Assembly (NCBI RefSeq): GCF_963921235.1
Contig: NC_086097.1
Location: forward strand, 100,380,001-100,444,000
From: Mobula hypostoma
Lineage: Eukaryota
DNA: 64,000 nt
Reading direction: 5' to 3'
Position numbers and translations under genes: made by a program. Positions 1,811 to 63,373 of the stretch are shown here, piece after piece. Each line of letters opens with the position of its first letter. Position 1 is the stretch's first letter. The notes beneath the pieces are model-generated. The model ran no database searches. It saw only the letters and a list, made by a program, of their open reading frames with translations, and was not told the origin of the DNA.

Positions 1811-1857
1811 TGTACTGTCTGGTATTTCACCTAATAACAAGCAGAAGAAATGCAAAC

Positions 1858-2072
1858 ACAAAATAATCTGCAGATGCTGGGTCAAAGCAACACTCACAAC
1901 ACGCTGGAGGAACTCAGCAGGTCAGGGAACCTACCAGCCTTCTCCTTCCCACCCTCCCCCCTCCTTCTTTGTAGGGCCTCTGCCCCTTCCCCCTACGATC
2001 CTGACGAAGGGTTCCGGCCCGAAACGTCGATCGATCTTTTCCACTGATGCTGCCCGACCTGCTGAGTTTCTG
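1858..2072 (+). mobile_element. Short Penelope-derived insertion (inverted pLTR piece plus 3' end)
   Basis: 14-bp TSD gaagaaatgcaaac (1844-1857, 2073-2086); 13-bp inverted repeat 1911-1923/2056-2068; homologous to the ends of Penelope copies at 6483-7020 and 15030-15775. Confidence 0.85.
1996..2033 (+). ncRNA. Minimal type I hammerhead ribozyme motif (Penelope-type)
   Basis: CGAUC-CUGACGA-A-GGG uuccgg CCC-GAAA-C-GUC-GAUCG: perfect 5-bp stem I, intact core, GUC cleavage triplet, palindromic ACGU stem III. Confidence 0.75.
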
Positions 2073-2534
2073 GAAGAAATGCAAACCCTTGCAGTTTAAT
2101 TAATGAACAAGGTGCCGGAGGGGAAGGCAGGAAACCCATCCCTGTAGATATCAATCAAGATGCAATCAAATTCCACACAACCTTGACCCACTGCCAGATG
2201 TGCATGCAAATGAGTACAGTGTCGGGGGGAATCCAGCTGATGTGGGGCCAGGTCACCAGGGTGGGCTCAAGGCCTGCTGGGGAAATCAGGCTCCTCCTCC
2301 ACTTTAGATTAATTTATTCTTGGATGGTCACATTAGGAAATGAAGATTGCCACTGTTTATAATTGCTTCACCAAGATTAATGTCACCACACAGCGGGGCA
2401 GTCAGAGGTTTGATTCCCAGGCTCTGCTGAAATTAATTGCAGGAAGAGTCAAATTTAAATAAAGTGTTTTCTTTAAAAACAACCTGATATTGCAATAGAA
2501 TAAACTGGAAACAACTGTTCTGTTGCAGAAGTGA

Positions 2535-3520
2535 TCCAGGCTCGACAAGAAGCTGGGAGACCTCAGCCTTGACCCCGCCTTGTGCAGTTGGATCCTGGAC
2601 TTCCTGTCAGTTCGCCAGCAGGTTGTAAGAGTGAACTCCCTCACCTCCAACCCACTGACTCTCAATACAGGAGCCCCTCAGGGCCATGTACTGAGTCTCC
2701 TCCTTTACTCCCTGTATACCCATGACTGTATCACCACCCACAGCTCCAATTTGCTAATTAAATTTGTTGATGACACTACATTGATTGGCCTAATCTCAAA
2801 CAATAATGAGGTGGCCTACAGGGAAGAAGTCATCACCCTGACACAGTGGTGTCAAGAAAACAACCTCTCCCTCAATGTCACAAAAGCAAAGGAGCTCATT
2901 GTGGACTACAGGAGGAATGGAGACAGGCTAACCCCTACTAACATCAATGGATCTGGGGTTGAGAGGGTGAACAGCTTCAAGTTCCTCGGCATTTACATCA
3001 CCGAGGACCTCACATGGGCTGTACACAACAGCACCTCTTTCACCTCAGACGGTTGAGGAAGTTTGGTATGGGCCCCCAAATCCTAAGAACTTTCTACAGG
3101 GGCACAATTGAGAGCATCCTGACTGGTTGTATCACTGCCTGGTTTGGGAACTGTACCTCCCTCAACCGCAGGGCTCTGCAGAGAGTGGTGTGGACAGCCC
3201 AGCACACCTTCCCAGGATTCAGGACATTTACAAGGACAGGATTATTGGGGACCCAAGCTATCCCAACCACAATCTACTCCAGCTGCTACCATCTGGGAAG
3301 TGGTACCGCAGCATAAAAGCCAGGACCAACAGGCACCGGGACAGCTTCTTCCACCAGGCCATCAAACTGATGAACTCACACTGATTTGAGTGAACTCTAT
3401 ATTACATTGACTGTTCTATTTATTATAAATTACTATGATTGCACATGGCACATTGAGATGGAGACATAACATAAAGATTTTTACTCATGTATGTGAAAGA
3501 TGTAAGAAATAAAGTCAATT
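2535..3520 (+). mobile_element. Rex1/Babar-like LINE, 5'-truncated, frameshifted
   Basis: WILDFLS...TGAPQG...KFVDDTTLIGLI...FKFLGIYITEDL, then LRRLRKFGM in another frame. Confidence 0.88.
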
Positions 3521-3602
3521 CAGTTCAGTTCACATGTCCTTCCGGAGACATTCTGCGCGATTCCTGCTTGGCATTTATGAGACTCTAGGTTCTCGGAGAC
3601 AG

Positions 3603-5473: not shown

Positions 5474-5479
5474 TTTATT
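5474..5479 (-). terminator. Putative polyadenylation signal AATAAA of the CRIP2-like mRNA (3'UTR ~600 nt)
   Basis: tttatt on the plus strand ~585 nt past the stop codon, ending an apparently repeat-free stretch; T-rich sequence follows on the minus strand. Confidence 0.65.
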
Positions 5480-6128: not shown

Positions 6129-9100
6129 CTGTAACAACAGCAAAGGGGTGAAGTTGGGAAGAGATATCACACTGGGTTGCCAAAATCACACCTCTCCAAT
6201 GCAGGTACTGACCCTCCCTCCAACCCTCCCAGGTTCTCCTCCTCCTCATGGAATATCGTGTGCAGTTCTAGTCGTCAGATTACCAGAAGGACGAAGAGGT
6301 TCTGGAGAGGGTTCAGCAGACACACACCAAGATGCTACCTGGATCAGAGGACATGAAGTACAAGGAGAAGTTGGACAAACTTAGATCGTTTTCTTTGGAG
6401 CATCAGAGGCTAAGGGTAGATCCAATAGAAGTTTAAAAAATTATGAGAGGCAAAGATAGGATAGTTAGAATCTTCAGAAAAGAGTTCAGTCAATGTTTCG
6501 GGCCAAGACCCTTCATCACGACTGGAGAGAAAAAGATGAGGAGTCAGGGTAAGAAGGTGGGAGGAGGGGAGAAAGAAACAGGAGGTGATAGGTGAAACCA
6601 GGAGGGAGGGAGAGGGGTGAAGTAAAGAGCTGGGAAGTTGATTGGTGAAGCAGATACAGGGCTGGAGAAGGGTTGGGGGAGGACAGAAGGCCATGGAAGA
6701 GAGAAAAGGGGGAGGAGCACCAGAGGGAGACGATGGGCAGGTAAGGAAGGAGATAAGGTGAGAGAGGGAAATGGGACTGGGGTATGCTGAAAGATGGGGG
6801 GGGGGTGTATTACAGGAAGTTCCAGAAATCGAAGTTCATGCCATCAGGTTGGAGGCTACCCAGATGGAATACAAGGTGTTGCTTCTCCAACCTGAGTGTG
6901 GCCTCATCGCGACAGTAGAGGAGACCATGGACTGGCATGTCGGAATGGGAATGGGAAGTGGAACTAAAATGGGTGGCCCCTGGGAGATCCCACTTTTTCT
7001 GGCAGACGGAGCGTAGGTGCGTGGCAAATTCATGGATAGGAAGGGTTCAAAGAGAATGGGCCAAACCTGGGTAAATGGTCAGTATGGACAAGCTGAGCGA
7101 CAGGACCTGTTGCCATGCTGTGTAACTCTGACCAAGAGGGTGAGGGGGAATTTGATCTGAATTTTCGAAGTCACAAAATGAACAAAGAAAAACAGTTCCC
7201 ACTGGCGAAGGGGGAGAATCACAAGGTACGGGGTTCAACAAGGAGCCGGGTGGCTTGAAGCAAAGCCTCTGCCTGCAGTGAACAGATGTGTACTTGAGCT
7301 GCTGCCTGCCTGAAGCAGAGGCATAAGCAAATGGAAAGGGGGAAGCAGCATTTGAGCGATGGGGAAAGAGCGATGAGACTAACTGAAATGTGAGGGATCA
7401 ATGGAGCAAATGCTGCAATGAATGGAAAAGAACGTGTGTTAAATCCTGCCCAGTACCTTCAAGGTGATCCTGCTTACCTTTCGGTCCAAACAGGATTCCG
7501 TAGCAGGGCTTGTGGCAGTAGGGCTGTCCATCATGCTGAATGGGGAGAGAGAGAAAACCGGCTTTAATGCATTGTAACCCTCAGCAGACAGCTCTGTAAC
7601 GTTCACCCAGCATCAGCACAGTGGTGCAACAGGTAGAAACGTCCCACAGCCCCAGGCACAGGGGCTCAATCCAGACCTCTCTGCTATGCGGAGTTTCAAT
7701 GTTCTCTGGGTGTTCTGGTCTCCTTCCACATCCCAAAGATGTGCAGGCTCGCTGAGCTAACTGACTGTCGTAAAAAAACTCCTGCAGTCTGCGTCCAGGT
7801 TACAAACACCCAACTCACAGATACCCTACAAACCAAAGAGCTCCCAGAATACTTGCAGATACGATTTGCAGAGTCCTTTTTTTTTTAAAGAGACTCCTGG
7901 ATAGGTACATGGAGCTTAGAAAAATAGAGGGCTATGAGTAACCCTAGGTAATTTCTAAGGTAAGGACATGTTTGGCACAGCTTTATGGGCCGAAGGGCGT
8001 GTATTGTGCTGTAGGTTTTCTACGTTTCTATTATGAAATTCAGAAATTTGACATCTATACATACACACAGTCTGCACACATCAGAATCAGCTTCCTCTCA
8101 CTCCACACATATTAGTTGTTCATTCTTCTGTGCTCTTGACGTCATTCATTACAATACTGGATGCAAAGTTGCCACATCAAGTGATTTTTGTGCATCTTCT
8201 GACTTATGGACAACATCAACCTATGGAGCTTTTGTAAAAGGTTAACCTGATGTGATAGAGGCTTTCAGATCGGCACATGAGTATGCACTGAATGGCAGGG
8301 TATGGATCATGTGCAGGCAGAAGGGGTTAGTTTAATTTGACATTGTGCTCAGCACAGACGTGGTAGGCTGAGGGCCTGTTCCTGTACTGTGTTGGTTCAT
8401 TAGGCAGGGACAGCCTGAGTGGTTAACCTGGGTGGAGCTGATAGGTTCACAGGGAGCTAAACCTCATCTTCACTCTCCTGTTTGTGGGAGTTCGTTGTGT
8501 TCTGATCTGTTGCCACTTACAACACTTTGGAAGTGCTTCTCTGTTGGTATGTGCTGGAGTCCTGAGGAGGTCTAAGCACACTACACGAGGGTGAAGATTG
8601 CCTTCTGAAGCTGTGCTGGTGAGATGGGTGCACAGTGAGGTGCATACTCAGTAACACACTGCTGCTTTACACACACAGCAAGGCAGAGAGCTCCTCCCAG
8701 TGGCAACATGTATAACACAGGCAAGGCCCAGCAGAGGCTGACGGGGCTCACAACAACATTCCTGCCCCTTGGAAGGTTTGCAGACATACTCTTTGTGGAG
8801 CCAGGCAGTTCCATGATCAAGGAGGGCCAGTAGCTTGTGAAAGGTATAGCAGCCGGGTTCTCTGTCTCAGCAGCACTGACTGGGAGCAGCAGGCAGCCAT
8901 TGTGTGTGTGTGAGTGATACGGCCCTAATCTGCCTTCTCACTCAAAAGGAAACAGGAACAGAAACAGAACTGGGGTCTTCAATCCTGCCTGCTCTTCAAT
9001 GGTGGATCTAGCCCAGTCATCAACTCCTCTTTTGTGCCTGTTCCAGGTGGTTCTCAATTCCTCCATCTTTCAGAAATTCATCTACCTCCTTTTTAGCTTC

Positions 9101-12100
9101 AATACCATATTGAAATCTGCTGACAACACCACTGTTGTCGGCTGAATTAAAGGTGGTGACAAATCAGCATATAGGAGGGAGATCGAAAATCTGGTTGAGT
9201 GGTGTCACAATAATCACCTCTTACTCAATGTCAGCAAGACCAAGGAGCTGGTTATTGACAACAGGAGAAAACCAGAGGTCAAATGAGCCAGTCCTCATAG
9301 GAGGATCAGACATGGAGAGGGTCAGCAACTTTAAATTCCTTAGTGTTAACTTTTCAGAGAACCTGTCCTGGGCCCAGAACTTAAGTAAAATTATGAAGAA
9401 AGTACAACAGTGCCTCAACTTCCTTGGGGGTTTACAAATATTTTGTATGACATCTGTACTTTCCACAAACTTGTATAGATGTTTGGTAGAGAGTATATTG
9501 ATGGGTTGCATCATGACCTGCAATGGAAACACCACTGCCCTTGCACAAAAAATCCCATAAACGGTAGTAGATACAGCCTAGTCCATCATGGGTAGAGCTG
9601 TCCCGCCCACTGGGGAGATAAATCTCCAAGGGCCTATACCCCAGGGTTATTGAGACAGAGGCAAGAGATGAGATTGCTGGGGCCTTGGCCAATATCTTTG
9701 TGTCCTCTCTAGCCAGAGGCAAGGTCGCAGAGAACTGGTGAGTAGCTACCATCATTCAAGAAAACAAGGGATAATCTGGAAACTATAGACCGGTGAGGCT
9801 CACATCAGTGGTAGGGAAATTACTGGAGAAAATTCTTAGGGATAGGATTTATGAACATTTGGAAAACCATGGTCTAAGTAAGAAGAGCCAACATGGTTTT
9901 GTGTGGGGCAAGCCATATCTTACTAACTTGATTGGACCTCTTTGACATTATGATGAGGGTGATTGATGAAGGTGGAGCTGTGGATGTTGTCTATGTGGAA
10001 TTTAGTAAGGCATTTGCCAAGGACTTTCGTGAGAGGCTCATCCAGAAGATTAAGAAGCATGGGATCCATGGTGAATTGGCTGTTTGGATTCAGAACTGCT
10101 TGCACACAGAAGGCAGAGGGTAGTGGTTGAAGGGACTTATTCTAACTGGAGGTCAGTGATTAGTGGTGTTCTGCAGAGATCTGTACTAGGCCCTCTGCTG
10201 TCTGTGATGTATATAAATAAAACTGGATGAAAATGTAGATAGGTGCGTTACTAAGTTTGCAGATTGGTGGAGTTGTGGATAGTGTAGAAGACTGGCAAAG
10301 AATACAGCATGACATAGATCAGTTGCAGATAGGGGCTGAGAAATGACAGATGAAGTTTGTAAGGCAAATGCAAGGAAACAGTTAACTATTAAGGGGAAGA
10401 TCCTTAACAGTGTTGCTGAGCAAAGAGATCATGGGATCCAAGTTCATAGCTCCTTCAAAGTGGCTACACAGGTCGATAAGGTGGTTAAGAAGGCTTATAG
10501 AATACTTGCTTTTATTAATTGAGACACTGAGTTCAAAAGTCAGGAAGTTATGTTACAACTTTATAAAACTCTATTTAGGCTCCCTATGAAGTACTGCATA
10601 CATTTGCGGCTGCCTGATTATAAGAAAGACGTCGAGGTTTTGGTGAGGGTGAAGTAGTTTACCCGCATGCTGCCAGGATTAGAGGGGGCATGTTGAAGTT
10701 GGACAAACTGGGTTGTTTTCTCTGGAGCGGTGAAGGCCGGAGGAAGATCTGAGACTTCATCAGATTATGAGAGACACAGAAAAAGTAGACTGAGGGTTCA
10801 AAACATCTAATACCACAGGACCTGCATTGAAGGTGAAGGGGGTAGGTCAAAAGATGATGTGGGGGGTAAGTTTTTTTTTAAAAACACACAGAATGATGGT
10901 GCCTGGAATGCACTGCCTGGGTGGTGGCAGAGGCAGGTACATGAGGGCCATTAAAGAGACATTTAGACAGACACATGAATGTGAGGGTAATGGAAGGATA
11001 TAGACATTGTGAAGGCAGAAGAGATAGTTTAGATGGCCACTTGATTACTTGGTTTGGCAGAACATTGTGGGTTGCAGGGCCTGTTCCTGTGCGTACTCTT
11101 CCCTGAACCACACTCCTCTGTCACCTTACCACCTGATACACTTGAATAAGATTACTTCTCATCCTTCTTCAAACGAGGAATATAGACCCAAACTATGCAG
11201 CTTCTCTTGACAGGCCAACCCTCCTTTATACTGTCTCTGAAGATACTGTGTGCCAAAGCATTCACGGTGTGGCCTCACCAACACCCTGTACAACCTGCAG
11301 TCTACAATACTTACACCCTGCAGTCTCCCCATGTACACAATAATCCACTATTTGATCCCGAATACCCAATGGTATGACCTCACACTTCCCACATCACTCA
11401 GTCTCACTACATCCAACTTAATGACACCCCACACAAACGAATGAGTGTTGGGAGACCGGTGGGATGGATCCGACAGCCACTGCAGGGCTTCAGGCATCTT
11501 CTGCTGGGTGGGAATGGGCTACTACCACATTCCCTCTATCTTCATCCACCACCACCACCGCTCCCTGCCGAGCTGCCACAAGCAGAGCTGAGCAGACTCA
11601 CCAAGGCTGGCTTCCCATTGCTCTTCCCGTACCTGTTCAGTGTCCCGTCAGCTACTTCTGTGATCCTCGTCCACCCACAGTTTGATTATTTCTGAGTTAC
11701 TAACAGTTCCCAGGTGCAGAACCCTGCCATAACCTGGGGACTGCCGATATGTCCCAGTGTTCTCATCACTATATATTCCCAGCTTCCGCCCTAACTGCGT
11801 GCCCACGACCAGTGCTCATGGGTTCTTAGAAACACTATCATTTAGTGCAGACTGGGGGCAATGAACCAAGTAAATTGCACCTCCCCCAGTCCCAGGGATC
11901 CATTCCCCACAGTTCCCAGCTCACCCAGTCCCAGGGGTCCATTCCCCACAGCTCCCAGTCCCAGGGGTCCATCCCCCACAGCTCCCAGCTCACCCAGTCC
12001 CAGGGGTCCATTCCCCACAGCTCCCAGTCCCAGGGGTCCAACCCCCACCTCACCCAGTCCCAGGGGTCCATTCCCCACAGCTCCCACCTCACCCAGTCCC

Positions 12101-15100
12101 AGGGGTCCATTCCCCACAGCTCCCAGTCCCAGGGGTCCAACCCCCACCTCACCCAGTCCCAGGGGTCCATTCCCCACAGCTCCCACCTCACTCAGTCCCA
12201 GGGGTCCATTCCCCACAGCTCCCAGCTCACCTAGTCCCAGTACAGGAAGAGGTGGCTGGGGTTTACAGGTACTGGAGGCCGTTTACACAATACGGGAAGA
12301 GGTGGACTGGGATTACAGTTACCACTGACCGTTCAACTCACCCGGTGGGGGTGGAGCTCATATTCCCTTATGACACAGGTCAATAAATCTGTCTTGTTCA
12401 ACTGGCTGGCCTTGTGGTGAGAGGCAGTTGCCTCTTCGTTGCGTCTGGAGTAGGTGACCTGGCTTGTGGATTGCCTGTGTGGGATGCTAGGCTTCTGCAA
12501 GGACTGATCTACCCCCCCCATCCCCGATACTTGGTGACATTACCACTGCCTGTGACCAGAAGCACAGTGGGTCGGCTGCACAAACACCATCGCTACAAGA
12601 GCAGTTCAGGGGCTTGAGATACCACAATTACAAATGGCTGCACTTCAAACTTGCTTTGTTGGAGGAGATGGGAAGGGGGGGACTCTGCTTCCTGTTACAG
12701 TAATGACTGAGGGGGAGAGTATGGCACTATCCTACAGTTAGCAGGAGGGTAACCGCCAAAAGCTGGCTACTGACACAGGGGAAACATTATATTCATCTTT
12801 ATGTGGTGCTTTCCGATGGCTGGCTCCTTTGTCTGACATTGTAGCTTTTCAAAAGGGATAGATATTCTTTATGGTAACACAGATGCCACAAGGGTGTGAC
12901 TGGGAGAAGGCTCCTTCAGGAAGACAAAGGCTTTAGACAGCATGGGAAGAAATTTACTAAAGAGCAGGAGGCTGAGGGGATCTGATGGAAGCATTTAAAA
13001 ATCAGGAAGAGTATAGCAAGCCTGGAGCGAGGAACTGTCCCACTGGAGGTGGGAACCGTGTGAAAGCCCTAGAGGGGGCCAGAGGGCAACGTATCGAGTG
13101 GTGACAAGAGACGCTGGGACCTGGAGCAGCTTCTCTGGAGGGGAATGGAGAGTTGACCCTTCAGCTGGACAGATGGCGTTTTCAGCTGCGTCTCGACCCA
13201 AAGGGTCCACTGTCCAGTTATCTTCCACAGATGCTGCCTGACCGCCAAGTTCCTCTGCTAGTTTGTGTTTTGCTCATACATCAGGTGGTTGGGATTAGAA
13301 AGCACTGCTGGATGGGGTGAGGATTCAGACAAGGAAAGCACTTGCAGGGCTGGACAGTGAATTGCAGGCTGCCCACAGCCTCTGGCTTCACTATTTTCAA
13401 TTAGTTCTTAAATTCCATCCAAGTTTTAAAGCATGAACCACCGTTCCTTGGAACATTCTGGCAAGCAAGTGTGGTTGGTTTAAACAGGGTTGGCTGGACT
13501 GTTCCAAAGAGTGGTTGTAGACGGGTCATATTCTGCATGGAGGTCGGTGACCAGTGGTGAGCCTCAGGGATCTGTTCTGGGACCCTTACTCGTCGTGATT
13601 TTTATAAATGACCTAGATGAGGAAGTGGAGAGATGGGTTAGTAAATTTGCTGATGACACAAAGGTCGGGGGTGTTGTGGATAGTGTGGAGGGCTGTCAGA
13701 GGTTACAGTGGGACACTGATAGGATGCAAAACTGGGCTGAGAAGTGGCAGATGGAGTTCAACCCAGATAAGTGTGAGGTGGTTCATTTTGGTAGGTCAAA
13801 TATGATGGCAGAATATAGTATTAATGGTAAGACTCTTGGCAGTGTGGAGGATCAGAGGGATCTTGGGGTCCGAGTCCATAGGAGACTCAAAGATGCTGCG
13901 CAGGTTGACTCTGTGGTTGAGAAGGCATACAGTGCATTGGCCTTCATCAATTGTGGGATTGAGTTTAGAAGCCGAGAAGTAATGTTACAGCTATATAGGA
14001 CCCTGGTCAGATCCCACTTGGAATACTGTGCTCAGTTCTGGTCGCCTCACCACAGGAAGGATACGGAAACCATAGAAAGGCTGCAGAGGAGATTTACAAG
14101 GATGTTGCCTGGATTGGGGAGCATGCCTTATGAGAATAGGTTGAGTGAACTTGGTCTTTTCTCTTTGGAGCAGCGGAGGATGAGAGGTGACCTGATAGAG
14201 GTGCATAAGATGATGAGAGGCATTGATTGTGTGGATAGTCAGAGGCTTTTTCCCTGGGCTGAAGTGGCTAGTACGAGAGGGCATAGTTTTAAGGTGCTTG
14301 GAAATAGCTATGGAGGAGATGTTAGGGTTAAGATTTTTACGCAGAGAGTGGTGTGTGTATGCAATGGGCTGCCGGAGACGGTGGTGGAGGCGGAAACGAT
14401 AGGGTCTTTTAAGAGACTCCTGGATAGATACATGGAGCTTAGAAAAATAGAGGGCTATGGGTAAAGCCTAGGTAGTTCTAAGGTAGGGACATGTTCGGCA
14501 CAGATTTGTGGGCCGGAGGGCCTGTATTGTGCTGTAGGTTTTCTATGTTTACTGAACATCAGCAATGTCACAGAGCCTGGTACACAAAGGGTCAATGGAT
14601 TGGAGTGATGCAGGATCATGTCTAGATGTAAGCTGACATCAAGGTGCCAGGTGATATTTATTTTACCTTCTGAATACACATTAATGGTGTTCTAGGAATT
14701 ATATTTGAGGCTGTCAGATCGACCCAGTTCTCTCACTCACTGAAGCTCAACACTTTTTTACAGCCGAGCTTTCTGTAAGCTGGGTCGGCTCTGGAGAACA
14801 ACGCACGTCGTTGTGCGGAGCAGGAAGCTTAAATTCCTTCACCACTTCCCCAGTCAGCAGTCAGAGTCAGGGCTGGGACAGGGGATTTTTAGAACACCAG
14901 GCCCCGGAGGCTACACTGTGTTAGAGGTCAGATGTCACAGCTCCAACATCTTGCTTGTTCTTTTAGAGACAGCCAAAGAATTGTACAGGAGAGAAACAGA
15001 CCCTTCGGCCCATAGTAACATCCCTATCTACACAAACACAAGAGATGACGGAAATCCAGAGCAAAGCATACAAAGTGCTAAAGGAGCTCAGCAGGTCAGG

Positions 15101-18100
15101 CAGCATCTATGGAGAAGAATAAAAAGTCGACAGTTTGGGCCGAGACCCTTTATCAAGACTAGAAATGAAGGGGATGAAGTCAGAATAAAGTAGGGGGAGG
15201 GGAAGGAGTACAAGCTGGCAGGTGATAGGTGAAATGAGACGAGGGGGAAGGGGGTGTGTGGAGGAATGAGAAGCTGGCAGGTGATAGGTGGTAAAGGGCT
15301 GAAGAAGAAAGAATCTGACAGGAGAGGCGAGTGGACCATGGCAGAAAGGAGAGGAGGGGCACCAGAGATGATAGACAGGTGAGGAGAAGAGAAGGGGTAA
15401 AGAGGGGAGCCAAAATGAGAATAGAAAAAGAAAAGGGGGGGGGGGAATTACTGGAAGCTGAAGAATTCAATGTTCATGCCATCCAGGTAAGGTTACCCAG
15501 GTGGAATATGAGGTGTTGCTCCTCCAGTCTGAGAGTGGCCTCATCATGGCAGAAGGCATGAAATGACATGCCGGAATATGAATGGGAAGTAAACTAAAAT
15601 GGATGGCCACCAGGAAATCCTGCCTGTTGTGGCGGATGGAGCGAAGGTGCGTGACAAGGTGGTTCCCCAGTCCACGCCAGGTTTCACCGATGTAGAGCAG
15701 GCTGCACCACGAGTGCCAGATACAGTAGATGACTCCAACAGACATGCAGGTGAACGTTGCCTTACCTGGAAAAGGCTTTGCACTAAACAAAACTCTGGCC
15801 ACCGCTTAGTCACGGAGTCACAGAACAAGGAAGCAAACCCTTTACCTCACTGAGTCTGTGTTAACCACCAACCATACGTTTACACTGATTCTACACTACT
15901 CCCATTCTTTATTCTCCCCACATTCCCATCAACTTCTCCCAGATTCTACTCTGCACTTACAAACTGGGGGGAATCTGCAGCAACTAATTAACCTAACTTG
16001 GGATGTGGAGGAAAACTAGAGTTTACACCCAGGGGAAACCTACAGTTACAGACAGAACGTTGTTATTGCTTTTCCTTTTGAAATACCTTGATGAAATCGG
16101 AGACTATCTGGGTGATCAGCATTGACTGGTTGGGCTGAAAGGCCTGTATCCATACTGCATTTCTCCATGACCCTATAATAAACCTATATGTAGAATGGCC
16201 CATCTGGGTAGCATGCAAAACAAAGGGTTTGACTGTATCTCAGTACATGTGACAATACTAAACAGCAGAACATGCGAACTCCACATGAAAAGCACCCGAG
16301 TTCAGGACTGAACCCAGGATGCAGTAGCTGTGTAGCAGTGGCCCTACCCAGTTGTCACAGGGGCATTTGTGGAACATCTCCAGCATTACTACAGTACCCC
16401 CACTTTGTGATTATCAGTCTGGAAGTCCCTATGGTGCTTAATGTAGTTTCACAAACAATCTGCTCTAGGGAGGGAAGCTCAGCTCAGCTAACCCATGCAG
16501 CCCTCACTGCACTTCCGCAATCATCAGAGCCTGTTCGTTCTAACCACATCTGTCATAGGAGCAAATTAGGCCATTTGGTCCTTCTAGTCTGATCTGCCAT
16601 TCCATCAAAGCTGGTTTAATTCATATCAACCCCATTATCCTGCCTTGGACACCCTTAACAAACATATAAATAAATATTGTAATATATATGATACGTGTGT
16701 GTATGTGGTGTATATATATACAGTGGCATGCAAAAGTTTGGGCACCTCTGGTCAAAATTTCTGTTACTCTGAATAGCTAAGTGAGTGAAAGATGAACTGA
16801 TTTCCAGAAGGCATAAAGTTAAAGATGACACATTTCTTTAATATTTTAAGCAAGAAAACTTCTTTATTTCCATCTTCTACAGTTTCAAAATAACAAAAAA
16901 AGTTAAAGGGCCTGAAGCAAAAGTTTGGGTACCCTGCATGGTCAGTACTTAGTAACACCCCCCTTGGCAAGTATCACAGCTTGTAAACATTTTTTGTAGC
17001 CAGCTAAGAGTCTTTCAATTCTTCTTTGGGGGAGCTTCGCCCATTCTTCCTTGCAAAAGGCTTCTAGTTCTGTGAGATTCTTGGGCCGCCTTGCATGCAC
17101 TGCTCTCTTGAGGTCTATCCACAAATTCCCGATGATGTTTAGGTCAGGGGACTGTGAGGGCTATGGCAAAACCTTCAGCTTGCACCTCTTGAGGTAGTCC
17201 ATTGTGGATTTTGAGGTGTGTTTAGGTTCATTATTCTGTTGTAGAAGCCATCTTCTTTTCATCTTCGGCTTTTTTTTACAGACGGTGTGATGTTTGCTTC
17301 CAGAAATTCCATGAAATTCTGCACCCTGTTTTTCTCCAAACATGCCTTTGCTTATTGCGGCCAAAAAGTTCTATTTTAACTTCATCAGTCCACAGGACTT
17401 GTTTCCAAAATGCATCAGGCTTGTTTAGATGTTCCTTTGAACCTTTTGAATAGTACTTTTATGGCCACAATGTGCAAAGGTATGTTTGGAGAAAAAAGGG
17501 TGCAGAATTTCATGAAAAGAACCCCTCCCCAACTGTTAAGCACCGGGGTGGATCGATCATGCTTTGGGCTTGTGTTGCAGCCAGTGGCACAGGGAACATT
17601 TACTGGTAGAGGGAAGAATGAATTCTGGAATCAAACATCACACTGTCTGTAAAAAAGCTGAAGATGAAAAGAGGACGGCTTCTACAACAGGATAATGAAC
17701 CTGAACACACCTCAAAATCCACAATGAACTACCCCAAGAGGCGCAAGCTGAAGGTTTTGCCATGGCCCTGACAGCCCCCTGACCTAAACATCATTGAGAA
17801 TCTGTGGATAGACCTCAAAAGAGCAGTGCATGCAAGACAGCCCAAGAATCTCACAGAACTAGAAGCCTTTTGCAAGGAAGAATGGGCAAAAATCCCCCAA
17901 ACAAGAATTGAAAGACTCTTAGCTGGCTACAGAAAGCGTTTACAAGCTGTGATACTTGCCAAAAGGGGTGTTACTAAGTACTGTCATGCAGGGTGCCCAA
18001 ACTTTTGCTTCGGGCCTTTTTCCTTCTGTTATTTTGAAACTGTAACAGATGGAAATAAAGTTTTCTTGCTTAAAATATTAAAGAAATGTGTCATTTTTAA

Positions 18101-21100
18101 CTTTATGCCTTTTGGAAATCAGTTCATCTTTTACTCGCTTAGCTATTCAGAGTAACAGAAATTTTGACCAGTGGTGCCCAAATTTTTGTATGCCACTGTA
18201 TATAGATAGAGAGAGAGAGAGACACACACACTTTATGTAACTCAGTTTTTCTTTCTCTATATTTATTTATCATGTATTGCACTGTACTGCTGTTGTAAAG
18301 TTAACAAATTTCATGATATATGCAGGTGATATTAAATCTGATTCTGATCAAGAACCTATCAAATTCTGCTTTAAATATACTCAATGACTTGGCCTCCACA
18401 GCTGTCTGTGGCGTTGAATTCACCTCCCTCTGGCTAAAGGAACCCCTCCTCATCTCTGTTCTAAAGGGACATCCTTCCATTCTGAGGCTGAATCCACTGG
18501 TCTTAGACTGCCCCACTACTGGACACATCCTCTCCATGTCCACTCTAAATAGGCTTTTCAACATTCAATAGGTTTGAACGAGATTCCCCCTCATTCTACT
18601 ATACTCCAGTGAGTACAGGTAAGAGTCATCAAACGTTCCTCATATGTAACCCTTGCATTCCAGAGATTAATCTCATTAAGCCTATCTGCAAACTTTCCAA
18701 TTCCATCTCATCCTTTCTTAGATACTAGGCCCAAAATTGCTCACCATATTCCAACTGCAGTCTGACCAATACTCCATAAAGCCTCAGCATTACATCATCG
18801 CCTTTATATTCTGGTCCTCTTGAAATGGATGTTAAAATTGCATTAGCCTTCCTTATCACCGGTACTCAACCTCCAAGTTAACCTTTAGGTAATTCTGCCC
18901 CAGAACTCTCAAGCCCCTTTCCACCTGATTTCTGAATTTGCTCCCCATATACAAAATAGTTTATGCCTTTATTTCTTTTACCAAAGTTCATGACCATTCA
19001 GTTCCCTACATTCCATTCAGTCTGCAACTTCTTTGCCCATTCTCTAATGTCCAAGCCCTTCTGAAGACTCCATGCTTCCTCAACACTACCTCCCCCTCAC
19101 CTATCTTTGTATCATCCACAACCTTGGCCACAAAGTAATCAATTCTGTCATCCAGATCATTGCCATACAATGTGGAAAGAAGGCATCCCAATATCGACAC
19201 TTGTGGGAACACCACCAGTCACCACCAGCCAACCAGAAAAGGGCCCCTTTATTTCCACTCTTTGCCTCTTGCCAGTTAACCAACCTTCTACGCATGCTAA
19301 TACCTTTCCAGTAATCCCATGGGCTCTAATCTTGTTCAGCAGCCTCATGTGTGACACCTCATCACAGACCCTCTGAAAATTCAAGTAAACAACATCCACT
19401 GACTTTGCTTTGTCTATCCCACCTGTTATTTCCTCAAAAAATTCCAACAGGTCTGTCAGGCAGCAGGATTCTTCCTAGAGGACAACCTATATTATCATGT
19501 GCCTCCAAGTATCCCAGAACCTCATCATAAATAATGGACTTAAACATCTTCCCAGCCACAGAAGTTGAGCTAACTGGTCTTTTGCCACCCTCCCTCTTAA
19601 AAACTGGAGTGACATTTGCAATTTTACAGTCCTCTGCAACCATTCCAGAATCTAGAGTTTCTTGAAAGATCACCAGTAATACCTCCACAATCTCTTCAGC
19701 TATCCTTTTTCAGAACACCGGGGTGTAGTCCATCGGGTCCAGATGACCTATTTACTTTCAGTTCTTTCAATTTTCTCAGCACGAATAATGCTGTCAAGTA
19801 TACTCACATCTGCCCTGACCCTGACACAAACTGCTGACATAATGCTGTCAAATATACTCACACCTGCCCCCCCGACACAAACTGCGGACAAAATGCTGTC
19901 AAATATACTCACACCTGCCCCCCCGACATAAACTGCTGACATAATGTTGTCAAATATACTCACATCTGCCCCCCCGACACAAACTGCGGACAAAATGCTG
20001 TCAAATATACTCACACCTGCCCCCCCGACATAAACTGCTGACATAATGTTGTCAAATATACTCACGTCTGCCCCCGACAGAAACTGCTGACATAATGCTG
20101 TCAAATATACTCACACCTGCCCCCCCGACATAAACTGCTGACATAATGTTGTCAAATATACTCACGTCTGCCCCCGACAGAAACTGCTGACATAATGCTG
20201 TCAAATATACTCACATCTGCCCCCACCGACAGAAACTGCTGACATAATGCTGTCAAATATACTCACATCTGCCCCGACAGAAACTGCTGACATAATACTG
20301 TCAAATATACTCACATCTGCCCCCTCAACACAAACTGCTGACATAATGCTGTCAAATATACTCACATCTGCCCCGACAGAAACTGCTGACATAATACTGT
20401 CAAATATACTCACATCTGCCCCCTCAACACAAACTGCTGACATAATGCTGTCAAATATACTCACATCTGCCCCGACAGAAACTGCTGACATAATACTGTC
20501 AAATATACTCACATCTGCCCCCCGACACAAACTGCTGACATAATGCTGTCAAATATACTCACACCTGCCCCCCCGACATAAACTGCTGACATAATGTTGT
20601 CAAATATACTCACGTCTGCCCCCGACAGAAACTGCTGACATAATGCTGTCAAATATACTCACATCTGCCCCCACCGACAGAAACTGCTGACATAATGCTG
20701 TCAAATATACTCACATCTGCCCCGACCCTGACACAAACTGCTGACATAATGCTGTCAAATATACTCACATCTGCCCCCCCGACAGAAACTGCGGACATAA
20801 TGCTGTCAAATATACTCACACCTGCCCCCCCGACAGAAACTGCTGACATAATGCTGTCAAATATACTCACATCTGCCCCCCGACACAAACTGCTGACATA
20901 ATGCTGTCAAATATACTCACATCTGCCCCCGACACAAACTGCTGACATAATGCTGTCAAATATACTCACATCTGCCCCGACAGAAACTGCTGACATAATA
21001 CTGTCAAATATACTCACATCTGCCCCCTCAACACAAACTGCTGACATAATGCTGTCAAATATACTCACATCTGCCCCGACAGAAACTGCTGACATAATAC

Positions 21101-24100
21101 TGTCAAATATACTCACATCCGCCCCCTCAACACAAACTGCTGACATAATGCTGTCAAATATACTCACATCTGCCCCGACAGAAACTGCTGACATAATACT
21201 GTCAAATATACTCACATCTGCCCCCCGACACAAACTGCTGACATAATGCTGTCAAATATACTCACATCTGCCCCCGACACAAACTGCTGACATAATGCTG
21301 TCAAATATACTCACAACTGCCCCCCCAACAGAAGCTGCTGACATAATGCTGTCAAATATACTCACATCTGCCCCCCGACAGAAACTGCTGACATAATGCT
21401 GTCAAATATACTCACATCTGCCCCGACCCTGACACAATCTGCTGACATAATGCTGTCAAATATACTTACAGCTGCCCCGACCCTGACACAAGCTGCTGAC
21501 ATAATGCTGTCAAATATACTCACATCTGCCCCCCCGACAGAAAATGCTGACATAATGCTGTCAAATATACTTACAGCTGCCCCGACCCTGACACAAGCTG
21601 CTGACATAATGCTGTCAAATATACTTACATCTGCCCCGACCCTGACACAAACTGCTGACATAATGCTGTCAAATATACTTACAGCTGCCCCGACCCTGAC
21701 ACAAACTGCTGACATAATGCTGTCAAATATACTCACATCTGCCCCCCCGACAGAAAATGCTGACATAATGCTGTCAAATATACTCACATCTGCCCTGACC
21801 CTGACACACAAACTGCTGACATAATGCTGTCAAATATACTTACAGCTGCCCCGACCCTGACACAAACTGCTGACATAATGCTGTCAAATATACTCACATC
21901 TGCCCCCGACACAAGCTGCTGACATAATGCTGTCAAATATACTCACATCTGCCCCCCCGACAGAAAATGCTGACATAATGCTGTCAAATATACTTACATC
22001 TGCCCCGACCCTGACACAAACTGCTGACATAATGCTGTCAAATATACTCACACCTGCCCCCTCGACACAAACTGCGGACATAATGCTGTCAGATATACTC
22101 ACACCTGCCCCCCCGACACAAACTGCTGACATAATGCTGTCAAATAAACTCACATCTGCCCCTGACACAAACTGCTGACATAATGCTGTCAAATATACTC
22201 ACATCTGCCCCAACCCTGACACAAACTGCTGACATAATGCTGTCAAATATACTCACATCTGACCCCCCGACAGAAACTGCTGACGTAATGCTGTCAAATA
22301 TACTCACATCTGCTCCCCCGACAGAAACTGCTGACATAATGCTGTCAAATTTACTCACATCTGCCCCCGACACAAACTGCTGACATAATGCTGTCAAATA
22401 TACTCACATCTGCCCCCACCGCAACACACACCAACTACTGACATAATGCTGTCAAATATACTCACATCTGCCCCGACCCCGACACACTCAAAACTGCTGT
22501 CATAATGCTGTTGTCTTCCATAGTAAGAGTGGTGCAAATTGTCCTCCATTCCTTTGCAGCCTATTATTACCTTTCTAGCACCATTTCCCAGTAGTCTGAT
22601 ATCCGCTCTTGACTCTCTTTTACTCTTTATAAATCTGAAAAACCTTTTGGTATCCTCCTATATTATTGGTCAGCATATCTTCATATTTTATCTATTCTCT
22701 CCATATTGCTTTTTCCCTTGCTTTCTGTTGGAGTTTAAAAGCTCCCCAATCCTCGAACTTCCCACTAATATATTTTTTGCCCTCACTTTTGCTTTTATGC
22801 TATCACTGTCTTCCCTTGTCAGCCACGGTTGCCTCATCCTCTCTTTAGAATGCTTCATCTTTGGGATATATCTGTCCTTCAAAGTGCTGATTGCACAACC
22901 TCTGACTCTGACTCCAGGTCGGGTGTTCATGCTCTGTCGCTGGAACCCCCATCTCCCCTTCCCTCACCACCACTGCACGATCCCGTCTCTCTCAGGTCCC
23001 ACCACCAGCTCTTGGGTCCTCGGAGACTCCAACTCACCCCACCATCCCAAACCTCCCTTCTCCTCAGATACTACCAACCCTCTTACTGAGGAACGTTCTG
23101 TCCTCAGTAAGGGTCTCATTTCTGTTTCCATGCCCACGCTTGAGATTCACGCCTGTCATGATGCTGAACTCTTCTTCCACCGCCTCCGTCTCCAAGCCTA
23201 CTTCTTTGGCAAGGATTTGCCACCCTGCACCAATAATCCCTTCTCCCATCTTCAACCCTCCTCCTCTTCCAGGACACACCGCCCTGGTCTTCTGCCTGCT
23301 CTGGACCTTTTCATTGCCAACTGCTGACGGGACATCAACTGTCTCAATTTCAACAGACCTCTCTCTCTCCAATTCCAACCACTCCTTGTGCATGCTCGAC
23401 TCTCCAATCCCGCTGCACCAATCCTAAATTCACCAAACCCGCAGATAAAGGAGGTGCTGTAGTAGTCAGGCATACTGACCTCTCCCCTGCTGAGGCCCAA
23501 CACCGACTCTCAGACACCTCCTCTTACCTACCCCTCGTACAGGACCCCACTAAAGAACACCAGGCCAACATCTCCCGCACCATCACCAACGTTATTGACT
23601 CTGGGGATCTTGCATCCACTGCCACCAACCTCATGGTTCCCGCACCCTGCGCCTCCCGTTTCTACCTCCTGCCCAAGATCCACAAACCCACTTGTCCAGG
23701 TAGACGCATTGTTTCAGTTTGTTCCTGCCCCAATGAACACATATCTGCATACTTCAACTCTGTTTTGTCCCCCTGGTTCAGTCCCTTCCCACCTACATCC
23801 GTGACACTTCACATGCTCTGGATCTTTTCAATGATTTCAAGTTTCCTGGCCTCCATCATCTTATTTTCACTATGGATGCCCAGTCCCTATACACCTCCAT
23901 CCCCCGCTAGGAAGGCCTCAAAGCTCTCTGTTTCTTTCCGAACACCAGACCTAACCAGTTCCCCTCCACCACCACTCTCCTCTGTCTAGAGGAACCTGTC
24001 CTCACTCTAAATAATTTTTCCTTTACTTCTCCCACTCTCTTCAAACAAAAGGAGTAGCCATGGGCACTTGCATGGGTCCCAGCTTTTTGTTGGCTATGTA

Positions 24101-42100: not shown

Positions 42101-45100
42101 GGTCAAGGACTACACGCAAGTTAAACAGCAACAACAGTGGGCCAAGTGACTCCAGACTACAAAATCCTGCAGTCTCACCACACCAGACAACGGAACAGCT
42201 AACGAGAGGTGGAGGGTACCCAGAATATCCTCATCCTCAATGGCAGGGCCCAGAACATGAGTGCCAGAGAGAAACCTTCACAACTACACTGAGGCAGAGT
42301 AGTAAATCCATTTTGAAATCCCCACTATGACAGCAGCCAGTCTAATTATCAGGAAATTGCTGTGAGCACTGGATTCAGTAAATATCCAGACAACATCCCA
42401 GCTGGATCAGTAGTTCAGAACTAGCTGCTCTACTAGCCATGAAGTTCTCGTACAATAACACTGGCATTTAACATGGAAAGTTGTTCATAACAAGTCCAAA
42501 CTGGGAAAGGGGAATTCTTCACTCAGAAGGTGGTGAGAGTGTGGAATGAGCTGCCAGCACAAGTGGTGCATGCAATTTTGATTTCAATGTTTAAGAGACA
42601 TTTGGATAGGTACATGGATGGGGAGGGTATGGGGGTTATGGTCTAGCTTCAGGTCAATGGGACAAGGCATGGACTAGATGAGCCAAAGGGCCTGTTTCTG
42701 TGCTGTGGTTTTCTGTGACTCTATCAAGTATCAAAGTGATGAAGACTACTGTCAATAATGCTCTCAACCAGTAAGCTGCTCACCACCGCAGAGTTTGGGC
42801 TTCACTTGGGCCACAAGGGTCCAAATCTCATCACAGCCTTCCCGAGTTCTGCAGGTGACAAGTGACAGGACAACATTCATGCTAAGAAATGCTCTCATGA
42901 CTCTCTGAGTGAAGGAGTTTCCACTCATGTTTCCCTTAAACTTTACAACTTTCACCCTTAACCTCTAGTTGTAGTTCCACCAAAAATTAGTGGAAAAATC
43001 CATCTATATCTCATCTATATGCTAATATAGAGATATTAGCATATCTCTATCAAATCACCTCTTAATCTTCTGTGTTCCAAGGAATAAAGTCCTAACCTAT
43101 TCAATCTTTCCTTATAACTCAAGTCCTCCAGTCCTGGCAACATCCTTGTAAATTTTCTCTGTACTCTTTCAACCTTATTTACATCTTTCCTGTAGATAGT
43201 GACCAAAACTGTATCCAATACTCCAAATTAGGCCTCACCAGTCTTATACAACTTCAATACAACATCCAATCTCCTGTAATCAATACTTTGATTTATGAAG
43301 GCCAATATCCCAAAAGCTTTCTTTACCACCCTATCTTTCTGTAACACCACTTTCAATGAATTATGGACCTGTATTCCCAGGTCCCTTTGTCCTAACACAC
43401 TCCTCAGTGCCCCACTGCTCATTGTATAAGACCTACCCTGGTTGGTCTCACCGAAGTGCAATGCCTTGCACTTGTCTGCATTAAATTCCATTTGCCATTT
43501 TTCAGCCGGTCTAGATCCCACACAAGCTCTGATAGTTATCCTTGTTGTCCGCTACATCCCCAGTATTGATGTCATCCACAAATTTGCTGATCCAGTTAAC
43601 AACTTTACCATCCAGATCACTGATATAGATGACAAACAACAACTGAACCAGCACTCATCCCTGCAGCACTCCACTAGTCACAAACCTCCAGTCAGAGAAG
43701 CAACCATCGACTACCATCTTCTGGCTTCTCCCAAAAAGCCAATGTCTAATTCAATTTACTATGTCATCTTAAATGAAAAAGTACTGAATCTTCTTGACCA
43801 CCCTCCCGAGTGGGACCTTGTCAAATGCTTTACTGAAATCCATGTAGACAACATCTACTGCCTTTCCTTCATCAACTATCCAAGTAACTTCCTCGAAAAG
43901 CTTAGTTCTATGAGATAAGCCAGACATGACCTACAACACACAAAGCCATGCTGACTATCCCTAATCAGTCCATGTCTATCCAAATACTCATATATCCAGT
44001 CCCTTAGAGTACCTTCCAATTAACTTTCCCACTACTAAAGTCAGGCTCACCAGCTTTCTACTTTCTGGTTTATTTTTAGAGCCTTTCTTATACAGTGGAA
44101 CAACATTGGCTATCCTCCAGTCCTCCATTTCCTCAACTGTCGCTAAAGATGATTTAAATATTTTGGCTTGGGCCCCTGCAATCTCCACACTTGCTTCCCA
44201 CCGGGTCTGAGGAAACACCTTGTCAGGCCCTGGGAATTTATTCACCCTAATTTGCCTCAAGACAGCAATGATCTCCTCCTCTATAATTTGCTTTGCCTCA
44301 CTTCTATAGACTCTGTGTCCATCTCCCAAGTGGATACAGATGCAAAAAATCCACTTAAAATCTCCCCATCTCTTTTGGCTCCACGCATGGATTACCATTC
44401 TGATTTTCCAGAGGACTAATTTTGTCCCTTGCAATCCTTTTGTCATTAACATATCTGTAGAAACCTTTCAGATTCTCCTTCACCTTGTCCGCTAGGCAAC
44501 CTCCTGCCTTCTTTTAGCCATCCTGATTTGCTTCTTAAGTAACACACATAAAATACTGGAGGAACTCAGCAGGCCATGCAGCATCTATGGAAAAGAGAAA
44601 ACAGTCGACAATTTGGGCCGAGACCCTTCATCAGGACACTTTAAGTGTTGTCTTGTGTTTCTAATACTCCACAAGTACCTCACATGTTCCTATTTCCCTC
44701 TATGCACCTCCTTTTTTTCTTACCAAGGGCCTCAATATGTCTTGGAAATCAAGGCTCCCTATACCTGTATCATGATCTTTTAATCCACAGGCACATACAA
44801 GCTTCATACTCTAAATATTTCACTTTTGAAGGCCTCTCACTTACCAAGTGCACCTTTGCCAGAAAACAGCCTGTCCCAATCCACACTTGCCAGATCCTTT
44901 CTGATACCATCAAAATTGGTCTTTCTCCAACTTAAAATCTCAACTCATGGATCAGACCAATCTTTTTCCATATTTGTCTTTGAAACTGATGGCATTATGG
45001 TCACTGGATACAAAATGTTTCCCTACACAAACCTGTCACATTCCCTAAGAGGACATCAATTATCGCACACTCTCTTGTTGAAACTTCTATGTACTAATTA

Positions 45101-54100: not shown

Positions 54101-57100
54101 CTGCAAGGTTAAAACTGCAGCAGGAGAACTGCAAATGGGAATCTGCACATCCTCCCCGTGGATGCGAGGGTTCTCTCCAGGTCTTCCCGTTTCCTCCCAC
54201 AGTCCAAAGATGAACTGGGTAGCTTAACCGGTCATTGTAGATTGTCCGGTGATTAGGTTAGGGTTAATCGGGGTTGTAAACCGTCCTGTGATTAGGTTAG
54301 GGTTAATCCGGGTTGCTGGGGTAGTGTGGCTCAAAGGGCCTATTTGCGCTGTACTGCTAAATAAATAAATATTACAGGGAAATGAACTGCGGAGGGGACA
54401 GGATTACTCTGAGACTCACTAGGCCAAACAGCCTTCTTCCCTTGCCACTGGAAAACAGGACAAAATATTTAAAAACTTCCCCCATGTGAGTGTTCACTAG
54501 CAATGACATGCTTCAGAGTGCATGGGATTCCAGACCTCCATCAGTGATGTGTCCAACATTCGGACACAGCCTCGCAGATGCTGTGGGAGATTTATTGCTG
54601 AAACAAAGCTGCCAATAACCAGCAAGCCAACTTCATCTTAAAACTGCGCCACACCTAAGCTGAGGCACTGGGTTAACTCCTTGAGTTCTACAACAGAGAT
54701 GTTCATTTTAAAGAAAGAAGCTGTTTTTCTTTGCCAGTTGCATGTTAACGATTGTAGAATTCCACTGCTCTGGTGAAAATACCTGCAGCCGTGCTTCGAC
54801 AGTGGCCACAGTTCCAGCTGACTGACAAGTGCAAGCAACACTCGAGTAATAGTTCTCCAGTTCCACTGCCCATTCTATCCGAGTATTACAGTTACCTCCC
54901 CTTCCCACTACCCACTCTATCCTCGAGTATTAGTTACTTCCCCTTCCCACTGCCCACTCCACCCGAGTATTACAGTTACCTCCCCTTCCCACTCTGAGTA
55001 TTAGTTACTTCCCCTTCCCACTGTCCACTCTATCCCTGAGTATTACAATTACCTCCCCTTCCCACTGTCCACTCTATCCCTGAGTATTACAATTACCTCC
55101 CCTTCCCACTGCCCATTCTATCCCTGAGTATTACAGTTACCTCCCCTTCCCACTGCCCACTCTATCCTCGAGTATTACAGTTACTTCCCCTTCCCACTCT
55201 GAGTATTAGTTACCTCCCCTTCCCACTGCTCACTCCTTCCCTGAGTATTAGTTACCTCCCCTTCCCACTGCCCACTTCATCCCTGAGTATTACAATTACC
55301 TCCCCTTCCCACGGCCCATTCTATCCCTGAGTATTAGTTACCTCCCCATCCCACTGCCCACTCCACCCAAGTATTACAGTTACCTCCCCTTCCCACTCTA
55401 TCTGAGTATTACCTCCCCTTCCCACTTTATCCCTGAGTATTAGTTACCTCCCCTTCCCACTGCCCACTCCACCCGAGTATTACAGTTACCTCCCCTTCCC
55501 ACTCTATCTGAGTATTAGTTACCTCCCCTTCCCACTCTATCCCTGAGTATTAGTTACCTCCCCTTCTCACTGCCCACTCTATCCATAAGGTTCCCCATTC
55601 TCACATTTGAAAGTAATAATACTTTTCTGGGATCCACCTGCAAACTGACTACACCTTCCTCTCCTTCACAAATTATCGAAGCTTTTCACACCACAAGTAA
55701 ATGGCACTGTAAAATTGGTTACTCTCATGAAGCCAACAACATGAACAAGCAATGCACAGCCCCACCATGATAAAAAAAACACAGGGGTGCTGAAATTGAG
55801 GTCTGAGAACTCCACAGCTCACTATCAGCTACCCTGATAAAGTGTGATCAGTGAATTTGAAACCTTCCAAGTCAGCGGAGATCCACTCTTGAAAACCATC
55901 GTACATGGGCAACATTGCAAACAGCAGCTGTGGCCCAGTCTCCCAACACCACAGGAACTGTCCAAAGTTTAGCTCCATTTTGCCCACCAGCTGCCACCAT
56001 TTTGGTCACACAGAGTCAGAGGGCACAGAAACAGGCCCTTCGGCCCAAGATTCTCATCCAATCTAGTCTCATTTGATTGTGTTTGGTCGATATCATTCTA
56101 AACATTTCCTACTCATGTACCAGTCCAAGTGTGCTTTAAATGTACTGTGCCTGCCTCAACCACTTCCTCTAGCAGCTTAATCCATGCAAGTACAACCCTC
56201 TATGAAATAAAAAAAACCCCTGAATTTCCCATTATATCTTCCCCTCTCACTTTCAACCCACGTCCCCGGGAAAAAGACAGTGCATTTACCATATTGATGC
56301 CTCTGATGATTTTTATAGACCTCTGTAACAGGGGCTCCCAACAACCCCTTGCTTATGGCATAAGAAAGGTTGGGAGCTGCTGCTCTACAAGATCACCCTT
56401 CATTCTCCTACACTCCAAAACCAGCCCTAGCCTGCCCATCTTCACTCTATAACTCAGAGTCCTAGCAATATTCTTGTCAGTCTTTTCTGACTGCTTTTCA
56501 ATTTACTAATCCTTCCTGTTGTAAGGTGATCAATACTGAACTCCATGATGCAAGAATAGCAGAATTGCTGCCCAATATCAATGAGTCCCAGTTAATCAGC
56601 CTACAGTAGATTCAGGCTTGAAGGAGGGTGTAAAGACCCAGGGGTGGGGAACACCAAGAACTGAGACCCAGAGACAGCTGTTCCACCCAATACTCCCCAT
56701 AGGTCACATCCCAAACTGCTCCATCACAACAGCATTCAGCATTAAAACAATGGGTTCCACTGACAAAACATCTGCACATGCAAGCTGACACACTGCTCCC
56801 TCTGAAAGCACTTACAGATCCCAGTTAACTCATTCCTTCCTGCAGGCACTCCAACCTCCAGCTTCTCTCTAACAGCTTGCTGCCGTCCTTCAACAGTGGC
56901 TCGACCACACTTACTCAAAGGAGCACCATTACTGAGAACCAACTCACGTCTCATTAAAATAAAAGTGCCAAGTTGGCACTTCTACTCTCCAAAATTTGCC
57001 CACTTGCCTAGCTAGCAAGAACTACAAACTTGCTGGTGCTCACTCCCCTGCCTCTGCTGGGTTTGCAGGGTATGAAAAAAAACAAGCAGCCAAATTGGAC

Positions 57101-62497: not shown

Positions 62498-63373
62498 TGT
62501 CATACAGAGGAGGTGGCTGGGAATGGACCCAAGTGCAAGACACAGACACTGAAGTACGAGGGACAGGACTAGGATACAGGGTGAGGGCAAGGACATGGAC
62601 ATGAAAACTGGGAACCCGGAACTGGACTGGACAAGAGAGCTAGGAGCCTGGACTTGGACTCTGAGCCAGAGACTGGACAAGGATCCAGTACCTGGGTCTT
62701 GCCTCTGGCTCGGACCCCAGAACTAGGCAAGGATGAGGCTTGGCAGGCAGGCAAGACGAGGCTGGAGTCTTCAGGCTTGAGGCTAGAGGCGAAGCTTGGC
62801 AGGAGGCAGGAAGCTGGAGTCTTCAGGCTTGAGTCTAGAGGCTAGAGACTTGAGGCGAGGCTTGGCAGGAGGCAGGAGGCTGGAGTCTTCAGGCTTGAGG
62901 CTAGGCAGGAGGATGGAGTCTTTAGGCTTGAGGCTAGGCAGGCTCCTCCTGGGCAGGGCGCGGATCACCACCCGACAGAGGCATGGGACAGGAAGGGACA
63001 GAACCAACCGCAGGTAACGGCAAGACAGCCTGTCTTACCCGGCGGAGGCAAGGGACAGGAATGGAGCTAGGTACGGGGTGGCTCCAGGACAAGACTGAAG
63101 GCAAGACGAGGTGAGAGTTACCAGCAAAACCAAGCAAGGTTTCAGGCGAGGAAACAGAACGCAGAGGAAGGGATACAAGGAGTAAGGACAAGAACAATCC
63201 AGCAGCCATGTCCTGGTCTCTGAAGGTATTTATGTAGCCAGCCCCAACGAGCATCAGCTGCCTCAATTAGAGCTCAACAAGAACAGAGACAGGGTAGACA
63301 GGAAAATCTGGAGCAAGGGTCGATGGACCGGACCGTGAACCGGAATATGGACTACGCGGATCGGACCATGACA
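62498..63373 (-). mobile_element. Solo LTR (876 bp)
   Basis: TGTCAT...ATGACA termini; perfect 5-bp TSD GATAA (62493-97, 63374-78); TATA-like cataaata (minus) near 63230; internal tandem repeats at 62735-62945. Confidence 0.88.

Follow-up and report, generated by a model that had tools for sequence, protein, structure and literature searches.

A short head-to-head insertion from the end of a Penelope-like element, carrying a hammerhead motif, in the genome of Mobula hypostoma

The locus studied here, at positions 1858-2072 of a 64-kb stretch of the Mobula hypostoma genome (the window), is an insert of 215 bp in which two pieces of the end (pLTR) of a Penelope-like element (PLE) lie head to head, one of them carrying a hammerhead motif. 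It raises the question whether such a unit is a copy of a retrozyme-like, non-autonomous family or a one-off truncated and inverted Penelope insertion, alternatives that an earlier note on this DNA had left side by side. We consider it very probable that the insert is a single, old and dead insertion made by the reverse transcriptase (RT)-endonuclease of a Neptune-type PLE. Positions of features are given in Table 1.

Table 1. Features of the insert, of related copies and of the neighbouring gene in the window
Feature	Position	Strand	Remarks
Left target-site duplication (TSD), 14 bp	1844..1857	no strand	Exact repeat; site in organism C lacks the insert
Microhomology of TSD end and last bases of the tail, 4 nt	1854..1857	-	Same 4 nt end the copy at 15125
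PLE "tail", 31 nt	1858..1888	-	At one end of the insert only
Inverted arm	1858..1926	-	69 nt from the 3ʹ end of the pLTR, tail included; 5ʹ-truncated at 1926
Left arm of the 19-bp inverted repeat	1908..1926	+	pLTR segment common to both pieces
Head-to-head inversion junction	1926..1927		G1926 compatible with both arms (1-nt microhomology)
Forward arm	1927..2071	+	145 nt of pLTR; stops 19 nt before the tail-less end of copy 44604
Minimal type I hammerhead motif	1996..2033	+	Predicted cleavage after C2028
Right arm of the 19-bp inverted repeat	2053..2071	+
Single extra G	2072..2072		Fits neither the family continuation nor the target
Right TSD, 14 bp	2073..2086
Older related copy	6477..7031	-	C-terminal part of a GIY-YIG endonuclease, followed by pLTR whose hammerhead is decayed
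Older related copy	15039..15620	-	Bounds approximate; broken endonuclease end, pLTR, decayed hammerhead and tail
Related copy	44537..44637	-	Apparently starts in stem I of the hammerhead; ends without a tail; TSD of 6 bp possible
Eight exons of a two-LIM-domain gene, presumably CRIP2-like	59035, 31316, 29709, 29112, 26084, 25778, 7535, 6130-6065	-	Span about 53 kb

The 14-mer in front of the insert is repeated exactly (14/14) behind it, and no other exact 14-mer direct repeat with a spacing of 100-400 bp lies outside tandem arrays in the 64-kb window, for which a naive estimate gives about 0.07 such repeats. No tandem repeat was found at the insert locus. Contigs from 4 of the 24 listed runs were placed on positions 1600-2400 at 85% likeness; run X4 may be the window's own sample and is not taken as independent support. 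For organism C (run X10), one 695-nt contig covers 1698-1822 and resumes at 2073-2357 after 23 intervening letters. In that interval the window has 21 unique bases, and run X5 has a 2-nt insertion at 1822, so that the 23 letters fit an empty site in which the 14-mer occurs once; the letters themselves are not printed, and the reading of organism C as empty follows from this tight agreement in length. For organism B (run X5), contigs covering 1600-1878 and 2043-2400 enter the element from either flank, indicating that organism B shares both insertion junctions, which are the part of the insert that these contigs resolve. The flanks diverge by about 2.5% for organism B and about 8.4% for organism C. 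The comparison shows that the insertion postdates the split from organism C and predates the split from organism B. A chance origin of the 14-bp repeat was rejected, since an empty site exists, and the exact 14-bp TSD claimed in the earlier note was confirmed by the 14/14 identity together with the empty site and both junctions in organism B. An empty site served likewise as proof in PMC3846280.

Both arms of the insert align to non-coding pLTR, which in copies 6487 and 15125 lies 3ʹ of the stop codon of the endonuclease, and the forward arm aligns with pLTR contiguous to the endonuclease fragment at 6813-7031. This 73-aa fragment matches three of nine candidate proteins (Mobula hypostoma, Hypanus sabinus) with 74-79% identity. 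Two of the matched proteins, P0001 and P0002, gave Pfam GIY-YIG matches at E values of 0.00046 and 0.002, below the curated cut-off, and a Pfam scan of the 73-aa fragment itself gave no match. All three matched proteins (P0001-P0003) have a CX4CxxC linker before the endonuclease, and a CX2-5CxxC linker in this place is a mark of Neptune and Nematis PLEs (PMC8557442). We assign the source family to the Neptune-type PLEs, with the linker criterion applied to database homologs rather than to this genome's own element, and with the choice of Neptune over Nematis resting on the known host range. The Penelope origin proposed earlier thus stands, the arms being pLTR that adjoins an endonuclease fragment whose homologs have both GIY-YIG and CX4CxxC. 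By alignment, the 31-nt tail is missing from copy 44604 and a related tail is present in copy 15125, which fits the optional 30-40 bp tail of PLEs. The source family is a very high-copy repeat, as marked by the summed contig depth in X4, which is 1e5-2e6 within the element versus 4-10 in the unique flanks and is not a copy number. Scans of viral contigs, metagenomes and prokaryote genomes with family patterns gave 0 matches. The literature searched contained no study of this ray PLE family; most subscription papers, Repbase and Dfam lay outside its scope.

The structure of the insert matches an already published arrangement of PLE insertions. Endonuclease-bearing (EN+) PLEs are described as leaving 5ʹ-truncated insertions with an adjoining inverted copy and a one-sided tail of 30-40 bp (PMC8557442, PMC3846280). 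The insert shares with them the head-to-head truncated pLTR, the one-sided tail, the TSD around the unit and the hammerhead in the pLTR, but it is only 215 bp long and without coding sequence, and its forward arm is 19 nt short, so that the flanking inverted repeat is only 19 bp. In one event, 14 bp of the target were duplicated and two 5ʹ-truncated pLTR pieces were placed head to head, so that their 3ʹ ends face outward and the tail is confined to one side. The 13-bp inverted repeat noted earlier is real as an exact core; with 2 mismatches allowed it reaches 19 bp (17/19 complementary), because both pieces contain the same 19 nt of pLTR. The left edge of the insert is blurred, as the tail overlaps the TSD by 4 nt, and this 4-nt microhomology is the likely priming site. 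Contigs of other copies begin matching at 1854-1856 (X10 records 2-4, X9 record 24).

A plausible course of integration is as follows. The endonuclease would cut both target strands 14 bp apart; one target 3ʹ end would prime at the RNA tail through the 4-nt match, from which 69 nt would be copied, and the other would prime internally, with 145 nt copied through the hammerhead. The two cDNAs may then have been joined at the 1-nt microhomology in a twin-priming-like manner, and the joining of overlapping cDNAs would duplicate the 19 nt and so create the inverted repeat. The hammerhead would be a passenger of the pLTR. A related course is known from 5ʹ-inverted L1 insertions (PMC2912911), with which the insert shares the inverted 5ʹ segment, the presumed use of both target ends as primers, a 14-bp TSD and microhomology both at the 3ʹ end and where the two arms join; it differs from them in its GIY-YIG PLE enzyme, in having no poly(A) and in showing no microhomology for internal priming. 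Unlike in usual L1-type twin priming, the forward arm's end has no microhomology with the TSD and is followed by one extra base, G2072, which we take to be untemplated. The internal start without microhomology and the extra base speak against a strict L1-type model. The PLE protein of the anole cuts and extends both strands and starts reverse transcription internally, and the tail may be an RT start signal (PMC11167929). Self-priming has been discussed for junctions with palindromes (PMC3846280), and no palindrome was found at the inversion junction of this insert.

The same one-off event could have drawn its arms from two RNAs or pLTR variants, for example through a dimeric RT-endonuclease, a possible variant of the mechanism that we hold to be clearly the less probable one. 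The 19-nt segment is not identical in the two arms (2 sites differ), both forms occur family-wide (loose ends at 1923 and 1926, among the rows listed), and the anole protein, which extends both strands, is predicted to be dimeric (PMC11167929). Against this, both differences are transitions, one of them at a CpG, and with flank divergences of 2.5-8% the insertion is old enough to have acquired both in place. Under the one-event reading, the locus is a clean, dated case of two-end integration by a PLE, filled in two organisms and empty in a third. The locus alone matters little; inverted mini-insertions gathered genome-wide would map RT start and stop sites in vivo.

The window contains six other related stretches, and the 1926/1927 junction is found in 0/6 of them. 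At these copies, TSD candidates of 6-7 bp, which may be chance, were seen in four and none in two. The copy at 44537-44637 (-) sits inside another repeat, and an apparent start within stem I of this kind occurs in one of the six. The contigs of the runs extend the comparison to the family, on the basis of 15 of 109 joints, 24 of 803 loose-end rows and 32 of 45,637 pieces, the joints having short sides of 18-35 letters. Loose ends at the junction run on as uninverted pLTR, with at least 175 plus at least 118 contigs behind the junction and at least 50 before it in X4, and at least 162 plus at least 122 behind and at least 34 before it in X5. Among the rows listed, loose ends behind both 1923 and 1926 continue as normal pLTR. 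Eleven of the 15 listed joints (of 109) link the inverted to the forward arm at other positions, indicating that head-to-head products recur with different junctions. No contig bridging 1926/1927 is among the pieces listed, where the junction contig of the locus itself is likewise unlisted. The uninverted continuations and the other junctions in relatives support the one-off truncated and inverted insertion.

A separate joint, from 1881 to 1999, was seen among the joints listed in three organisms (depth 34, 24.9 and 13.5); it either recurs through short microhomology or belongs to a small propagated unit.

The other alternative of the earlier note, a retrozyme-like family, found no support: there are no tandem units, and the listed junction contigs continue as pLTR on both sides. 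Its fullest form, in which the 215-nt fold-back unit belongs to a small non-autonomous family, transcribed and re-inserted whole by Neptune proteins, with swapped stem I pairs recording selection on the ribozyme in that lineage, appears to us very unlikely. Several features would suit it: the hammerhead motif is intact, the forward arm has 8 CpG versus 2-3 in older copies, the tail with its possible start signal is retained, the recurrence of the 1881-to-1999 junction in three organisms suggests that fixed inverted units may exist in the family, and X4 lists no perfectly matching contig across the forward-arm interior, a weak hint of shared variants. The unit also resembles animal non-LTR retrozymes (PMC7229834, bioRxiv 10.64898/2026.07.22.740005), being non-coding, derived from pLTR and within their size range of 150-450 bp, with a type I hammerhead and a long TSD. 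It departs from them in its inverted structure and single ribozyme. The head-to-tail tandem arrangement by which non-LTR retrozymes are recognised (PMC7229834, PMC6765202) is absent from the insert, and no tandem array exists at the site. As there is only one hammerhead, an RNA of unit length cannot be released. Moreover, hundreds of contigs exit the junction as uninverted pLTR while no listed piece spans 1926/1927, and the window holds no second copy. If true, such a fold-back family would stand beside the tandem retrozymes as a dispersed counterpart with a single ribozyme.

For the hammerhead itself, all parts of the claimed minimal type I motif are present, namely stem I (1996-2000/2029-2033, 5/5 Watson-Crick), the core boxes (CUGACGA at 2001-2007, then A2008, GAAA at 2021-2024 and CGUC at 2025-2028), a 4-bp stem II (2009-2012/2017-2020) with the G10.1-C11.1 pair, and the palindromic 15.2-16.2 pair. 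A search of both strands with a strict hammerhead descriptor had one match in the window, at 1996-2033, and none in 20 controls of 64 kb simulated by a Markov model. An Rfam scan of the window at E ≤ 1 found no hammerhead and two weak, unrelated matches. The motif is like the minimal hammerheads of metazoan PLEs (PMC4209133) in its CUGANGA box with an extra nucleotide, its G10.1-C11.1 pair, its palindromic C15.2-G16.2 without loop 3 and its 5-bp stem I, and the fish, lamprey and frog rows of that source have the same CUGANGAA and CGUC boxes as here. Its stem II of 4 bp differs from the 7-8 bp of the Schistosoma families (PMC4209133). Shark, skate and Callorhinchus gave no match in one of the two supplement files of PMC4209133. 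The extra A before stem II had been called non-canonical, a view that we rejected, since PLE minimal hammerheads conserve an additional nucleotide at this place, between 9 and 10.1 (PMC4209133).

The motif is probably inactive, being single and having a core predicted to be trapped in a hairpin. Folding, which leaves out tertiary contacts and protein, gave -14.0 kcal/mol when the core pairs with the cleavage-site strand versus -10.0 for the open form, a pairing that C at position 7 allows, and the core-trapping helix had a pairing probability of about 0.9 in the full insert. In an artificial tandem, the double-hammerhead fold reached -16.9 versus -31.1 kcal/mol for the best fold, again without tertiary contacts and protein. 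Folding z-scores were not significant, with -1.68 for the whole insert and about -1.1 for the motif. Single Schistosoma motifs showed no cleavage and dimers low cleavage (PMC4209133), one of nine Xenopus dimers cleaved (bioRxiv 10.64898/2026.07.22.740005), and the hammerhead of the anole requires protein for cleavage and is not required for insertion in vitro (PMC11167929). No run in the list is recorded as RNA, and X9, which may be RNA, was left out of account for expression, since contigs show neither strand nor ends.

Stem I of the insert differs from the majority of the genome by two compensatory pairs. The earlier note had compared it with the copies at 6487, 15125 and 44604, giving CAGUC/GACUG as an example; of the three, only 6487 has this stem, while 15125 has UAGUC/GACUU and 44604 appears 5ʹ-truncated within stem I. 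The hammerhead cores of all three are damaged. The covariation claimed on this basis stands as a sequence fact, as two stem I pairs are changed on both sides versus the window copies (A-U to G-C and G-C to A-U), but four sequences lend it no statistical support, with 75/500 shuffles reaching two both-side pair changes in a count that left out the relatives at 13223 and 29968 (the most decayed or shortest) and the fragment 53335. By summed depth in X4, the family has A at 1997 and G at 1998 in 99.7%, with C at 2031 in 98% (40 of 69 rows listed), and the stem I of the insert is therefore rare. Of the five near-fixed differences in 145 nt, three fall within the 10-nt stem I (post hoc P about 0.002, or 0.007 if seven differences are counted). 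This clustering speaks for a minor source lineage in which compensatory changes had occurred, rather than for random decay. The changes may also have arisen after insertion, the insertion being old enough for 2-6 substitutions. At position 2032, about 65% of the family depth is C (rows listed), a share that bias in contig placement may inflate; C2032 in the majority form would give an A-C mismatch intermediate, possibly a subfamily and possibly an effect of that bias. The residual depth of the insert's letters at 1997/1998 is 0.3-0.4% in X4 and X5, within the range of 0.02-0.6% at 1962/1971, and thus gives no evidence of a subfamily. The compensatory stem I is the one unexplained detail of the locus, and it could reveal whether selection acts on the hammerhead in lineages that propagate.

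A decayed hammerhead at 15124-15161 (-) has U3 and A8 in place of C3 and G8 and has also lost G12. A U3/A8 core covariation is described for Schistosoma PLEs, and given the loss of G12 the pair at 15124-15161 is probably chance.

Exons of a two-LIM-domain gene, which we take to be CRIP2-like, lie on the (-) strand of the window, with a LIM domain match in Pfam. The gene has its stop near 6065 and a likely polyadenylation signal at 5479, which places the insert about 3.4 kb downstream, with the ribozyme on the opposite strand. That the host retained the locus as a functional RNA, a ribozyme or hairpin acting on this gene, is the least credible reading of all: the locus occurs in two organisms and stem I is fully paired, but the insert lies that far past the signal at 5479, its hammerhead, whose core is predicted to be trapped, and the gene are on opposite strands, and organism C does without the insert. 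Elsewhere in the window, a minisatellite at 19785-22511 has a 51-bp unit in about 53 copies with 89% matches, and three more compound minisatellites lie at 11881-12240, 54863-55579 and 62738-62943. Decayed LINE-like reverse-transcriptase fragments, judged by eye, are present on both sides of the locus at 330-1100 and 2520-3560.
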